Part shown: piece after piece, positions 37,101 through 41,404 of the stretch
Layout of the letters: the number at the start of each line of letters is the position of its first letter
Numbering within the stretch: position 1 is the first letter of the stretch
Source: Callorhinchus milii
Lineage: Eukaryota
DNA: 64,000 nucleotides
Assembly: GCF_018977255.1 (NCBI RefSeq)
Contig: NW_024704742.1
Coordinates: 38,380,001 to 38,444,000 of the forward strand
Direction of reading: 5' to 3'
Position numbers and translations under genes: made by a program
Notes under the pieces: generated by a model
The model's input: only the letters and a program-made list of their open reading frames with translations
Database searches by the model: none
Told to the model about the DNA's origin: nothing

Positions 37101-40100
37101 TCTCATGATCGTCTCATGATATATAGAAGTTTTCTATACATCCTGCAGGTTACACAATGATTAAAATTTGGTCACATTGTTTTGAGTTATCCTTTTTATA
37201 AAGGAGAAGACTACTTGTCCTGCAAATATGAGTGTTTCCTGCCTTCACATAGCAGCGTGTGATTTATCGAGTGGGAATTAAATTGTCTTTAAACTGATCT
37301 GTACTCTTCTTGTAATTAGGAAGAGGGCCACTCTGAGTGGGTATCTTGTGTTCGCTTTTCACCAAACAACAGCAACCCAATCATTGTTTCCTGTGGCTGG
37401 GACAAGATGGTGAAGGTAAGAATGCAGCACATACACTTGTTCTTGGCTCAACTTATTCTGTAGTGCGTTACCTAGCTTGTCCAGCGTGTCACTCCTTAGG
37501 CAGAGTGGATTAATTCCTTTCCTTTATTTTCTCTTCACAGCTGTGCCTTGAGATAACAAATCTCAGTTTTTTGCCTTTAAGAATGGTCTGGCCGCACACT
37601 TTTAAGCTGGATCGTCCTCATTTCTACAATTGTGCGGTGTTTCGCAGGCTTGAGAATATGGGAGTAAATGGGATTTTAGTTTAAAGGTGCGTGTTCTGGC
37701 CGTTCTTAAAGGTGAGTGCTTTGCTTGCCTTTTTCCCCCTCTTTCTGTTTAGTATTGACTCACTTAGATGTATTAAGCATGAGCCAGACTGCACATGTCC
37801 AATGATTAAAACTTTCATTGCTGTTCACATAATGATTTGCTGTGATTATTGACTTATACAAATGAGGACATATGGTCAAATATGAATCGTACCAATATGC
37901 TGTCTGACTTTGTGTTTGATACTTTTGTGATTTAAGCCATTGATCACTGATTCAATCGTGTTCACAATGTGTGTAAAGGTTAGCCTACATTTTTTTAAAT
38001 GTGGGGATTTTGAAGATCATGCTATGTTAAACCTTTTTGTTGAACGTTATTGGTGGATATATCTGATTACACCGAACCCTCTCTGGGGGTGTGGAGAAAA
38101 GTCTGAGACACCCAAAGGATTGCTCTTTAAAAGAGCCAGCATAGTCAATGGGCTGAATGGCCACTTTCTGTGCTGTAAATTTCTATGCTTCTGTTTTTTA
38201 TTGAAGATTTTTTCTATCCTTTAAATTGTCTGTAGGTTTGGAATCTTACAAACTGCAAGCTGAAGACCAATCACATTGGGCACGTTGGTTACCTCAATGC
38301 TGTGACTGTCTCCCCTGATGGATCTCTCTGCGCCTCAGGTGGGAAGGTATGTCCTGCTGCTGTGGCCTTGAGACCACTTTTCTCACTCGGATCTGATCTG
38401 TCAGCATATTCTGCCCTTTTATTCTGTTTACCAGCTAAATATGTAACATTTGGTAAGTTCTACAATGTTGTGAGGGTCCCAAGATTGTGGGAGGGTGTGT
38501 TGCAGAAGTAACAATCTCTGCGGGGCCGAAGAGGCTGTTTTATTGTTGCTTAGATCAATTATTGAAAAGCCTATGTAAGTGGATGGGGCCCATAGTGTGT
38601 CATGTTTTCTGAATTGAAAGTGACAACCTGACTACTTGGGTACTTTATAACCCCAGACCAGTAAAACATCGTTTTCAGGCCCTGTTTTAATATAACTACA
38701 ACAATCTACATTTATGTAGCGTATTTCACATTGGGAGGATGTTTGGAGTCCTGTGGCTCAGTGGTTAGAGCACTCGCTTTGCAAGTGAGAGACCTGAGTT
38801 CAATTCCAGGCAGAGGGTGAAACCTCGGGCAAATTTCCTTACTCCACACTCCTAATAATCCCTCCAAAAAACAATAATAATAAATTGGTCATTTTCAATC
38901 CATGACTGTTTGTGGGACATTGCTGTGCACAATTGGCTGCCGCATTCGCCCACAAATATACAGTCAATTCACTTTACAGTATATTCTGTGAAGCGCTTTG
39001 GGATGTCTAGAAGACGTGAAAAGCGCTATATCAAATGCAAGGATTATTATTATGTTTCTAAGGGCTTTATACAGTTGACTAGAAGCCTGAGTTTGAGAAA
39101 GTGGAATCTTGTGTAGTGATTAACTTCTAACTTTGTATTTTCTATTTAGGATGGTCAGGCTATGCTGTGGGACCTGAATGAAGGAAAGCACTTGTACACT
39201 CTTGATGGTGGGGATGTCATCAATTCTCTGTGCTTCAGCCCCAACAGATACTGGCTGTGTGCTGCAACAGGTCCCAGCATCAAGATCTGGGTAAGAATTC
39301 CATGCATGCGGATATACATGGGTTGAGTTCTGAAAACACTTGTGCAAGTGAGCAGGGAGTTCACTGATCTTACTATGGAATATGTTAGCTGTGATGAAAC
39401 TCCTTCATATGCCTTTTCTGAGATGTACATGCGGAAACTTCAGAGGCTGTTTCTGAGCTAATTGGAAATTCTGAAATGATTGGGGAGGGGGGCTGATGTA
39501 CTTTTATTGCAGATTTTTACTCTGGTTATATGCAATTGCTGCACAAGTAAAATTGCCTTGCTTAATGTGAAAGTGGTATCTTCAGGAAGCGAGTGGCAAT
39601 AGGGTCCTTAAATTGTCGTGCTGAAACCACTGCCAGGCTTGTAAAAGTAAATCCCCTGTGGATCTGATTAAATACCTAATTAACCTTCAAGCGGCATTCC
39701 AATTTATAGTTATTTTTCTTGGTAACTGATCATAATTAAGTTTTAATTATATCAAAAATGTTTGTTCATATTCTAAAATTCAGCATAATCCAGCATTGCT
39801 TCTGCTGTTCTCGGTTTCCTATCTTTTAATCTTTTAGTTGTATATCTGTTATATCGTATTGAGTATCGTACAGATTTGTAGTTTGGAACTGTTATATCCC
39901 ATTACAAATTCTGTAGGCCTCCTCCCTAAAGCTGACTTATCTTTGCCTACACCCTTGACTCCAGGACCACTGCTGTTCTGACAGAATGTCTGTCAGACAT
40001 CAAGTCCTGGATGAGAGTTAACTTTCTTCAGTTGAACGTCAACAAGACCGAGGCTCTGCTGATTGGCTCCTGCCAGCGCCTCCTCACCTCAGGCGCTGAC

Positions 40101-41404
40101 GGCATCACCATCTGGATGCAGATTCCACCTTACTAAGCCAGTCCAGAAACTTGGCCCTCAACTGTCCTTTTTACCCCACATCTGTGCATTGACCTGCTCT
40201 ACCTTCCCCCACCTCCACCGCTATCTCACACCGCAGGCAGCTGAAACCCTCATACACCCTTTCATTACATCAAGGCTTGACTATGCAAACTCCTTGCTTG
40301 TTGAAAGGCTCTATACAAATGTAATTTTATTGTTGTTATCACCATTTGAATTTTTGCTGTGAAGTGTGGAATTAACCTGACCAGCTTCAGAAGAAATGTC
40401 TTAAAGTTACTTGTTGTAGTCAGGCTTTTGACCCTGTACAGACCCTGTACTTGTACAGAATCTTTAGTGAGACAAGCTGTGGCTGATGTTTTTTTTTCCC
40501 AAATACAGTCGAGGCCTGTCGGCCTTCAATAATGGTTATGATAGAAACGTACAGTTGTGGTGCAAGTTGTCCTGTTTGATATGTATGGGGGAATATATAA
40601 ATTGAACTAGTACTAAGCCAGTGGTAACTAAGTCAAATTTATGTTTTTCTTCAAAGGATTTAGAGGGAAAGATCATAGTTGATGAACTGCGTCAGGAAGT
40701 CATCAGTACTAGCGGCAAGGCACAGCCACCTCATTGCACGGCGCTAGCTTGGTCTGCTGATGGTCAGGTGAGTCAAATAACATTTGTTTTAGATTGTTTA
40801 GTGTTTGAAGTTAATGTGTTCTTGTGAGTACTTGGTAGCATTCAATAGTCCAGATGTTCATGACTGTCCCAATGATTATTTTGAGTCACTTAACTACCCA
40901 TCTGACCCTATTTGGGGCAGGATTACAAACAAAAGAATGAGGGTACAGTCGATACATGGCATACAACTGTATAATATTTTACAGTTTTGTCTGAGGTACT
41001 TCCAAATTTATTTTTCCAGTAATTTATTCATTGAATAACTGAACGTCACAAAACTGAATGAAACATTCAAACATCATCGGAGGAGATAATGGGAATAAAA
41101 TAGCAATGGGAATAAGAGATCTTAACGTGTATTTATTAGGTGACAGAAATGGTCAGCAAACAAATCTGAAATGTCTGGTAAACTCATAGTTCACACATCC
41201 TATTATCAAATGTGAATGAAATTAAAGTGTAACTTTGTTTTTGAGGGGAATATACTGGTAGGCTTTAGCATTGCACTTTCTTTATAAAGTTTTTATGAGG
41301 CTAATGCCAAATTCTTTTTTTTTCTCCAGACTCTGTTTGCAGGATACACTGATAATCTGATTCGTATCTGGCAAGTGACTATCGGAACCAAATCCTGCGG
41401 ATAA
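33756..41404 (+). CDS. RACK1: RACK1/GNB2L1-like 7-bladed WD40 ribosomal scaffold protein, complete, 320 aa, 8 exons (probable second paralog)
   Basis: Exons 33756-33864, 34970-35141, 36835-36982, 37320-37415, 38236-38346, 39150-39290, 40657-40767, 41330-41404 (109/172/148/96/111/141/111/75 nt = 963 nt). All introns GT-AG, ORF intact: [38 protein letters not shown]...[11 protein letters not shown]. Confidence 0.96.
34970..35141 (+). CDS. RACK1: RACK1-like exon 2
   Basis: [17 protein letters not shown]...LRLWDLS. Confidence 0.96.
35208..35592. mobile_element. Non-autonomous Tc1/mariner (Tigger-like) DNA element
   Basis: Imperfect TIRs CAGGCTGACTTCTGTATAACAA / TCGTTATACCCAGGTCGGCCTG, followed by TA. 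Confidence 0.6.
35899..36216 (-). mobile_element. tRNA-derived SINE (short subfamily)
   Basis: Reverse complement of the 38745 copy. Confidence 0.9.
36835..36982 (+). CDS. RACK1: RACK1-like exon 3
   Basis: [20 protein letters not shown]...CKYTIQ. Confidence 0.96.
37152..37235 (+). ncRNA. Box C/D snoRNA, SNORD96-like guide (5.8S Gm75), variant boxes
   Basis: Terminal stem ACAC/GTGT, C=ATGATTA 37157, D=ATGA 37228; D guide TGTCCTGCAA antisense to 5.8S UUGCAGGACA; ~85 nt upstream of the intron-3 acceptor. Confidence 0.7.
37320..37415 (+). CDS. RACK1: RACK1-like exon 4
   Basis: [32 protein letters not shown]. Confidence 0.96.
37795..37871 (+). ncRNA. Box C/D snoRNA, SNORD143/144-like (28S Um2415 guide)
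   Basis: Stem ATGTCC/GGACAT; C=ATGATTA 37802, D'=ATGA 37832, C'=GTGATTA 37842, D=ATGA 37862; D' guide TGCTGTTCACAT antisense to 28S AUGUGAACAGCA. Confidence 0.85.
38236..38346 (+). CDS. RACK1: RACK1-like exon 5
   Basis: [37 protein letters not shown]. Confidence 0.96.
38745..39053 (+). mobile_element. tRNA-derived SINE (short subfamily)
   Basis: A/B-box head and (ATT)n tail. Confidence 0.9.
39150..39290 (+). CDS. RACK1: RACK1-like exon 6
   Basis: [21 protein letters not shown]...PSIKIW. Confidence 0.96.
39385..39461 (+). ncRNA. SNORD95: Box C/D snoRNA SNORD95-like
   Basis: Stem TTAGC/GCTAA, C=GTGATGA 39391, D=CTGA 39453; D guide CAGAGGCTGTTT antisense to 28S AAACAGCCUCUG, as in SNORD95, a known RACK1-hosted snoRNA. 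Confidence 0.88.
40657..40767 (+). CDS. RACK1: RACK1-like exon 7
   Basis: [37 protein letters not shown]. Confidence 0.96.
40862..40950 (+). ncRNA. Orphan box C/D snoRNA candidate with variant boxes
   Basis: 9-bp bulged stem GACTGTCCC/GGG(T)ACAGTC; C=ATGATTA 40872, D'=CTGA 40902, C'=AGGATTA 40919, D=ATGA 40937. Confidence 0.72.
41330..41404 (+). CDS. RACK1: RACK1-like exon 8 (last)
   Basis: [24 protein letters not shown]. Confidence 0.95.

Follow-up and report, generated by a model that had tools for sequence, protein, structure and literature searches.

Box C/D snoRNA-like elements with a paired U-A box variant in RACK1 introns of Callorhinchus milii: probable relatives of SNORD96 and SNORD143/144, and an orphan

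Small nucleolar RNAs (snoRNAs) of the box C/D class are described by two consensus motifs, RUGAUGA for box C and CUGA for box D, and the authors of a zebrafish survey state that almost all of their box C/D snoRNAs (SNORDs) fit them (PMC7668251). Supplement 4 of that work, whose entries are expressed SNORDs from small-RNA sequencing, includes SNORD96, which lies in a rack1 intron, uses box D (C=GUGAUUU, D=AUGA) and carries the guide ...GTCCTGCAATT|ATGA for 5.8S_75, and 'SNORD143', which lies in a zmym2 intron and uses D' (C=GUGAUUA, D=AUGA, D'=AUGA, C'=GUGAUUU) at LSU_2402, a site with a score of 0.91-0.96 across zebrafish stages. In human, SNORD143/144 (ZL5/ZL6) from SEC31A intron 3 serve as the guides for 28S Um2402, and the account given by Kishore et al. 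2013 mentions that homologues outside mammals were not found. Human U96A (RACK1), placed in the 'second intron' by PMC3941584, is represented there by primers whose 5' end is GGTGATGA and whose 3' end, as complement, is GTCCTGCAATTCTGAA with TTCTGAA, which correspond to canonical G-C boxes. SNORD95 is located in rack1 in zebrafish (PMC7668251, supplement 4) and, as U95, in GNB2L1 intron 6 in chicken (2009 chicken paper). The present work concerns a 64,000-nucleotide (nt) stretch of the genome of Callorhinchus milii (GCF_018977255.1, contig NW_024704742.1, positions 38,380,001 to 38,444,000 of the forward strand; hereafter the window), in which introns 3, 4 and 7 of RACK1 hold, on the sense strand, three elements of the common form stem-A-AUGAUUA...AUGA-stem. 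They are called c1, c2 and c3 below; c1 is probably a SNORD96 orthologue and c2 a probable member of the SNORD143/144 family.

A first-pass annotation, made from the letters of the window, had proposed snoRNAs at 37152-37235, 37795-37871 and 40862-40950, and the sequence agrees with that proposal at all three places:

37152..37235, + strand: c1, putative SNORD96 orthologue, intron 3, 84 nt (ACAC-A-ATGATTA...ATGA-GTGT); stem 37152-55/37232-35, box C AUGAUUA 37157-63, box D AUGA 37228-31
c1 inner parts, + strand: tentative D' UUGA 37182-85; D guide 37216-27
37795..37871, + strand: c2, putative SNORD143/144-family orthologue, intron 4, 77 nt (ATGTCC-A-ATGATTA...ATGA-TTTGCT-GTGATTA...ATGA-GGACAT); stem 37795-800/37866-71, box C AUGAUUA 37802-08, box D AUGA 37862-65
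c2 inner parts, + strand: D' guide 37819-31; D' AUGA 37832-35; C' GUGAUUA 37842-48
40862..40950, + strand: c3, orphan C/D-like element, intron 7, 89 nt (GACTGTCCC-A-ATGATTA...CTGA...ATGA-GGG(T)ACAGTC); stem 40862-70/40941-50, in which one U is bulged, box C AUGAUUA 40872-78, box D AUGA 40937-40
c3 inner parts, + strand: D' CUGA 40902-05; C'-like AGGAUUA 40919-25

The bare heptamer ATGATTA occurs 6 times on the two strands of the window, against 12.3 occurrences expected from shuffles, and three of the six belong to c1, c2 and c3. A composite scan, in which ATGATTA is followed by ATGA 36-95 nt on and both are enclosed by a terminal stem in kink-turn (k-turn) register (one spacer base on the 5' side and none on the 3' side; a minimum of 4 pairs, or of 7 where one bulge is present), gives three matches on the plus strand, namely c1, c2 and c3, and none on the minus strand, while 300 dinucleotide shuffles average 0.063 matches per window and never exceed 1. 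Mismatched box pairings combined with a stem (TGATTA with CTGA, or TGATGA with ATGA) have no match on either strand of the window. The terminal stems comprise 4, 6 and 9-10 base pairs (bp), the loop is A-A-U, and the -1b/-1n pair is in all three cases C-G, which is the commonest type and accounts for 65% of human snoRNAs (PMC5579392). Minimum free energy (MFE) folds preserve the terminal stem of c1, c2 and c3, with unremarkable z-scores of -0.24, -1.21 and -1.58, respectively. Such scores seldom set C/D snoRNAs apart.

In the C/D k-turn, position 6 of box C pairs with position 1 of box D. All three elements depart from consensus at precisely these places: box C has U for G at position 6, its other six positions conforming, and box D is AUGA in each, so that positions 6 and 1 are U and A and can pair. 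Elsewhere in the k-turn, G3 and A4 of box C form sheared pairs with A4 and G3 of box D, and U5 stands opposite U2 (PMC5579392). AUGA is counted as a D-box variant in a human screen (PMC4914119). The suggestion made on first pass that the two changes compensate each other is borne out by described snoRNAs. Among the 91 box-annotated rows of sheet 1 of PMC7668251 supplement 4, as counted by us, U6 in box C is found in two and A1 in box D in two, and in both cases the rows are those of SNORD96 and SNORD143, a complete overlap that has a chance probability of 1/4095; a terminal motif with either change alone is absent from the 91 rows, SNORD99, annotated AUGAUAG, being re-readable as AGGAUGA. Human U96A has G and C at the two positions (primers, PMC3941584), and the U-A of c1 and its zebrafish counterpart versus the G-C of the human RNA therefore represents real covariation, as compensatory substitution predicts. 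Since the paired change is common to the zebrafish orthologues, it would be old and tolerated by the small nucleolar ribonucleoprotein (snoRNP). A further precedent comes from the Rfam U54 consensus (RF00206), with GUGAUU. as box C and AUGA as box D.

It is of note that c2 repeats the swap in its D'/C' pair (ATGA/GTGATTA), as the first reading of its sequence had it, and that zebrafish SNORD143 and the region of the human ZL6 probe do likewise; within the SNORD143/144 family the D'/C' swap is conserved. The guides, stems and all other box positions of c1 and c2 are intact despite the swap, which, as far as the compared sequences tell, is compensatory in the evolutionary sense. Watkins et al., in 2002, are said to have found stem II necessary for the recruitment of NOP56, NOP58 and fibrillarin. 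According to PMC10234308, box deviations are the top predictor of non-expression in human. Among the titles and abstracts returned by a literature search on AUGAUUA together with snoRNA, none concerned a snoRNA box, and no discussion of the variant was met; the string lies within a probe in PMC4851398, and in a zebrafish snoRNAome supplement rack1, zmym2 and the motif strings are all absent.

Guides were compared with one rDNA unit from the animal's own assembly, in which the bounds of 5.8S, 28S and 18S were set with Rfam. An antisense element of at least 9-10 nt adjoining D or D', with a known methylated nucleotide at the fifth position (+5), is found in both c1 and c2. In c1, TGTCCTGCAA (37216-37225) is complementary to 5.8S 72-81 and places G74, the equivalent of human Gm75, at the fifth position before the box D that starts at 37228; guide position 1 also pairs, and position 2 is an A.A mismatch. 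A RACK1 host and a box-D guide for 5.8S Gm75 are expected of SNORD96, and c1 has both features. The 5' half of c1 holds another complementarity, TCACATTGTTT (37172-37182, before UUGA), which pairs with 5.8S 60-70 with two G-U pairs and adjoins the D-guide target at 70-81; this pairing may be accessory, and it has no counterpart in zebrafish SNORD96.

In c2, the stretch TGCTGTTCACAT (37819-37830) forms 12 contiguous Watson-Crick pairs with 28S 1872-1883, and the single base that separates this guide from the D' AUGA brings U1875 (human Um2402) to the fifth position; the surrounding letters, CAUGU*GAACAGCA, match those given for LSU_2402 in zebrafish. This guide, together with homology to described members, is what would be expected of the SNORD143/144 family. 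Compared by eye, c2 and zebrafish SNORD143 agree as follows:

5' stem TGTCC: 5/5
guide TGCTGTTCACAT: 12/12
D': 4/4
linker: 4/6
C': 6/7
D: 4/4
3' stem GGACAT: 6/6

The human ZL6 Northern probe, read as complement and compared in the same way, gives ATGA-ACCGTT-GTGATTA-TTGA, where c2 has ATGA-TTTGCT-GTGATTA-TTGA. Agreement with the zebrafish and human entries in guide, boxes, stem and D'/C' core thus points to c1 as a SNORD96 orthologue and to c2 as a member of the SNORD143/144 family; the zebrafish entries to which they are homologous are expressed, and their sites are methylated. The 5' end of c2, CATGTCCAA (37794-37802, covering stem and box C start), is in addition complementary to 28S 1885-1893, one base past the guide target, which may be chance or extra base-pairing.

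A number of observations weigh against these assignments, and against a snoRNA identity of all three elements. The zebrafish and human sequences were compared by eye only, with no aligner, and the host gene of c2 differs from those of its zebrafish and human relatives, so that its orthology is argued from sequence. The guide of c1, with its mismatch at position 2, has just 10 contiguous pairs. Neither c1-c3 nor the SNORD95 orthologue described below reaches an Rfam cut-off, the models having been run at the gathering threshold on the whole window and at E<=10 on stretches of 11 kb, 771 nt and 136 nt; on the stretches with c1-c3 the latter setting returned generic, sub-threshold C/D matches only, and RF00055 (SNORD96, gathering cut-off 43 bits) has no match to c1 even at E<=10. 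In zebrafish, SNORD79, SNORD18 and SNORD25 combine a C' with U6 with a CUGA D', and the internal covariation of c2 is therefore no general rule. As to c3, its C'/D' pair, AGGAUUA/CUGA, is uncompensated, and it has no guide-register duplex on the animal's own 5.8S, 18S or 28S, its internal transcribed spacers (ITS1/2), its intergenic spacer (IGS), or U1, U2, U4, U5 and U6.

Whether other RNAs in the genome could serve the same two sites was addressed with the guide patterns: all 60 genome matches to TGTCCTGCAANNNTGA (for c1) and all 68 to GCTGTTCACAT(0-2)NTGA (for c2) were examined for motifs resembling boxes C and D and for a terminal stem, and none beyond c1 and c2 had a convincing C/D architecture, a moderate negative, as shorter or shifted duplexes would escape such a screen. 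Two candidates, L075 and L111, passed a relaxed filter, with weak stems in the wrong register, and were judged to be chance, L075 having CUGAUGG...CUGA, an A/U-rich stem of 4 pairs and the wrong spacing; L089 and L091 were inspected as alternative guides and judged likewise. Genome-wide, RF00055 gave three sub-threshold matches of 25.6-27.4 bits, none of them at c1, a weak negative in which 51 of about 272,000 candidates were scored. In a search for paralogues, c1, c2 and c3 each found only itself, and the genome has one copy of each. Small nuclear RNA (snRNA) genes for U2, U1 and U6 were also seen in the assembly, arranged in tandem arrays at C4:21.32-21.45 Mb, at C24:7.79 and 8.50-8.52 Mb, and at C21:1.10-1.17 Mb.

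The possibility that AT-rich motifs simply co-occur within AT-rich introns would agree with the lack of enrichment of the bare heptamer in the window, but it has to face the three matches against 0.063 expected once stem and spacing are required, the register of two guides with known methylation sites, and the near-identity of c2 with a published zebrafish snoRNA; its probability is close to nil, and for c1 and c2 a chance origin is effectively refuted. More has to be said for the notion that c3 is not a working guide but a snoRNA relic, a duplicate without function that is decaying and in which erosion has yet to reach the boxes and the stem. No target for c3 was found in the rRNAs, spacers and five snRNAs searched, and no known methylated nucleotide lies at +5. 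Its GAGTCACTTAA resembles the guide end of c2, TGTTCACATAA, at 8 of 10 positions, yet would be expected to pair poorly with 28S. Its GGGCAGGATTAC (40915-40926) is complementary, with one G-U pair, to 28S 3575-3586, where the guide of zebrafish SNORD119, ...AGCAGGATTACA|CTGA, also pairs (PMC7668251, supplement 4), but these 12 nt lie 11 nt from box D and out of register, and by our estimate about 0.8 matches of that strength would be expected by chance. The uncompensated C'/D' pair fits decay as well. On the other side, c3 retains both terminal boxes and the same C-G/A-A-U k-turn context as c1 and c2, in proper register, with the longest terminal stem of the three, a combination that the shuffles place at 0.063 per window, and many conserved vertebrate snoRNAs are orphans, 20 expressed ones being given for chicken (2009 chicken paper). 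Taken together, decay comes close to an even prospect without quite attaining it. The best Rfam match of c3 is the generic C/D model snoR27, at 19.8 bits versus a cut-off of 41 bits. In the reading preferred here, c3 would be an orphan snoRNA or else a duplicate in the course of diverging; a possible source is c2, which has the stem TGTCC.../...GG.ACA in common with it.

The relation among the three elements has been the subject of a further claim, namely that a shared TTCAC/GTCAC stretch after box C betrays duplication from intron to intron. This could not be upheld: the stretch is part of the guide of c2, zebrafish SNORD96 lacks the TCACAT stretch, an alignment of the elements with MAFFT was uninformative, and local alignment of the internal regions, in which SNORD95 was also compared, was insignificant (P = 0.09 for c1-c2, 0.20 for c1-c3 and 0.92 for c2-c3). 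Of the three-member C/D family put forward in the first-pass annotation, the architecture, the register and the guides of c1 and c2 stand, and c3 has no detectable target. A recent three-way duplication is unsupported; rather than having been copied recently from one intron to another, c1 and c2 are each the orthologue of an old family of its own. The family idea may be set much earlier, with all three elements going back to a single ancestor hosted by RACK1 and already bearing the U-A k-turn, from which cis duplication between introns and guide retargeting gave rise to SNORD96, SNORD143/144 and c3, and the 28S guide later moving to other hosts in teleosts and mammals. The only two terminal U-A snoRNAs of zebrafish correspond to the two that occupy neighbouring RACK1 introns here; c1, c2 and c3 have C-A-AUGAUUA and AUGA-G in common, down to the variable loop base and the purine; and the stem core TGTCC/GG.ACA is common to c2 and c3. 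The targets are also alike (5.8S 64-77 versus 28S 1871-1884, AUGUGAA..GCA; rDNA unit L005, 1-157 and 468-4443), the second-best match of the c2 guide being that same 5.8S stretch, and the 2009 chicken paper attributes new snoRNAs mainly to cis duplication. Against such an early origin stand the lack of significant similarity between the internal regions, the missing TCACAT stretch of zebrafish SNORD96, and the unrelated U54 consensus, which has the variant and indicates that it can arise independently. We regard a common ancestor as a tentative idea, somewhat more doubtful than the decay of c3. Less likely again, and offered as conjecture, is a fuller version in which SNORD96 and SNORD143/144 are ancient sisters from a RACK1 intron duplication, fish lineages retained the U-A pair over hundreds of millions of years, mammalian SNORD96 changed it to G-C, c3 adds a third member, an unnamed orphan, and U-A is selected (e.g. 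through altered NOP58 loading or regulation) and not neutral.

Returning to c1 and c2 as orthologues of known guides, their mode of action can be proposed by analogy. Once spliced out and trimmed by exonucleases back to its terminal stem, c1 would assemble with SNU13, NOP58, NOP56 and fibrillarin, and its box-D guide would direct 2'-O-methylation of 5.8S G74, just as the D' guide of c2 would direct methylation of 28S U1875; in both, the pair closing stem II of the C/D k-turn would be U-A instead of the usual G-C. We infer expression, snoRNP assembly and methylation in this species. With regard to processing, Hirose and Steitz are said to have found that the assembly of snoRNAs close to the branch point depends on splicing and that distant ones rely on longer external stems. 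In RACK1, c1 has a stem of 4 bp with two outer G-C pairs and lies 84 nt from the 3' splice site, and the others are distant and have longer stems: c2 at 364 nt with 6 bp, c3 at 379 nt with 9-10 bp and the SNORD95 orthologue at 1197 nt with 6-7 bp. This pattern would fit splicing-dependent and stem-dependent processing, respectively.

The host was recognised as RACK1 from the match of exon 2 to residues 37-92 of RACK1 in ribosome structures (E about 1e-44, PDB). Splice joints were taken from contigs of four RNA-like runs, none of which is on record as RNA. The gene model and the SNORD95 orthologue are as follows, all on the + strand:

33750..41404: RACK1 host gene, 8 coding exons, from open reading frame pieces, splice joints, the PDB match and the exon 8 translation
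ends 36982: RACK1 exon 3
36983-37319: RACK1 intron 3, exon 3-4 contig joint, GT..AG
37320-37415: RACK1 exon 4
37416-38235: RACK1 intron 4, exon 4-5 contig joint, GT..AG
38236-38346: RACK1 exon 5
38347-39149: RACK1 intron 5, exon 5-6 contig joint, GT..AG
39150-39290: RACK1 exon 6
39291-40656: RACK1 intron 6, GT..AG sites and reading frame only
39388-39459: putative SNORD95 orthologue, intron 6, canonical GUGAUGA/CUGA, outside the variant set
40657-40767: RACK1 exon 7
40768-41329: RACK1 intron 7, GT..AG sites and reading frame only
starts 41330: RACK1 exon 8

Contig pieces of low depth fall within the introns, none over c1, 0.2 depth in the bin of c2 and pieces at 40756-41127 over c3; such contigs are uninformative on RNAs of 70-90 nt. 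The element at 39388-39459 scores 25 bits (E 0.054) against Rfam SNORD95, below the cut-off of 55 bits, and its D guide pairs with 28S 2281-2293, with A2285 at +5. Its D' antisense element has its best fit at 28S 2952-2961, with G2956 at +5, and does not fit at the C2811-equivalent, which we take to be the target of the human U95 D' guide. The best explanation as a whole, in which RACK1 introns of this genome host four box C/D snoRNAs (c1, c2, c3 and SNORD95), appears probable.

Repeats were also met in and around the gene. Six tRNA-model matches of 35-52 bits (14863-14935, 31489-31560, 36148-36210 on the minus strand, 38751-38813, 41574-41643, and 44282-44352 on the minus strand) resemble the heads of a tRNA-derived family of short interspersed nuclear elements (SINEs). 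A SINE-like copy in RACK1 intron 5 (about 38650-39110) stands out in the RNA-like runs, where its summed contig depth is very high and variant letters are numerous, and a repeat fragment in intron 6 (about 39880-40340), of high multi-copy depth, makes up much of the 1.2 kb from SNORD95 to the 3' splice site.

The finding is real and mostly already catalogued: c1 and c2 add new members to known families, and for zebrafish a table already contains these RNAs with their odd boxes. The locus nevertheless offers a clean test, set by nature, of covariation at the stem-II pair, with U-A in fish-type SNORD96 and SNORD143 and G-C in human U96A. Through c2, the SNORD143/144 family, once reported to be restricted to mammals, would extend beyond them, in a host gene, RACK1, that is previously unreported for it and is its third, an example of snoRNA mobility between hosts. 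The first-pass expectation that scanners requiring RUGAUGA/CUGA would miss such elements agrees with the Rfam search, in which no family reached threshold for c1-c3; in practice, box-strict scanners and Rfam models lose conserved rRNA guides. Table 1 of the 2009 chicken catalogue gives no guide for 5.8S-G75 or for the U2402-equivalent, gaps that missed variant boxes may explain. As to c3, it constitutes a candidate new orphan snoRNA.

Set beside the described systems, the SNORD95 orthologue has the same RACK1 host and, as in chicken U95, the same intron 6, a D guide for the A2802-equivalent, and canonical boxes with no U-A pair. The U54 family (RF00206) has a guide unrelated to that of c2, which scores 18.4 bits against its model, where the cut-off is 40, and c2 is therefore no U54 member. 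With SNORD96/U96A (RF00055), c1 has in common the RACK1 host, although in intron 3 as numbered here, the box-D guide core GTCCTGCAA and the target nucleotide; its UGAUU/AUGA boxes are those of zebrafish SNORD96, unlike the canonical GUGAUGA/CUGA of human U96A, and the A.A mismatch at guide position 2 is a feature of c1. Finally, c2 lies in RACK1 intron 4, zebrafish SNORD143 in zmym2 and human SNORD143/144 in SEC31A intron 3, so that the host is not conserved, but c2 is like SNORD143/144 (ZL5/ZL6) in its D' guide, its target and the core formed by the D' AUGA, 6 nt and the C' GUGAUU(A/U), and like zebrafish 'SNORD143' in its terminal stem and terminal boxes as well.

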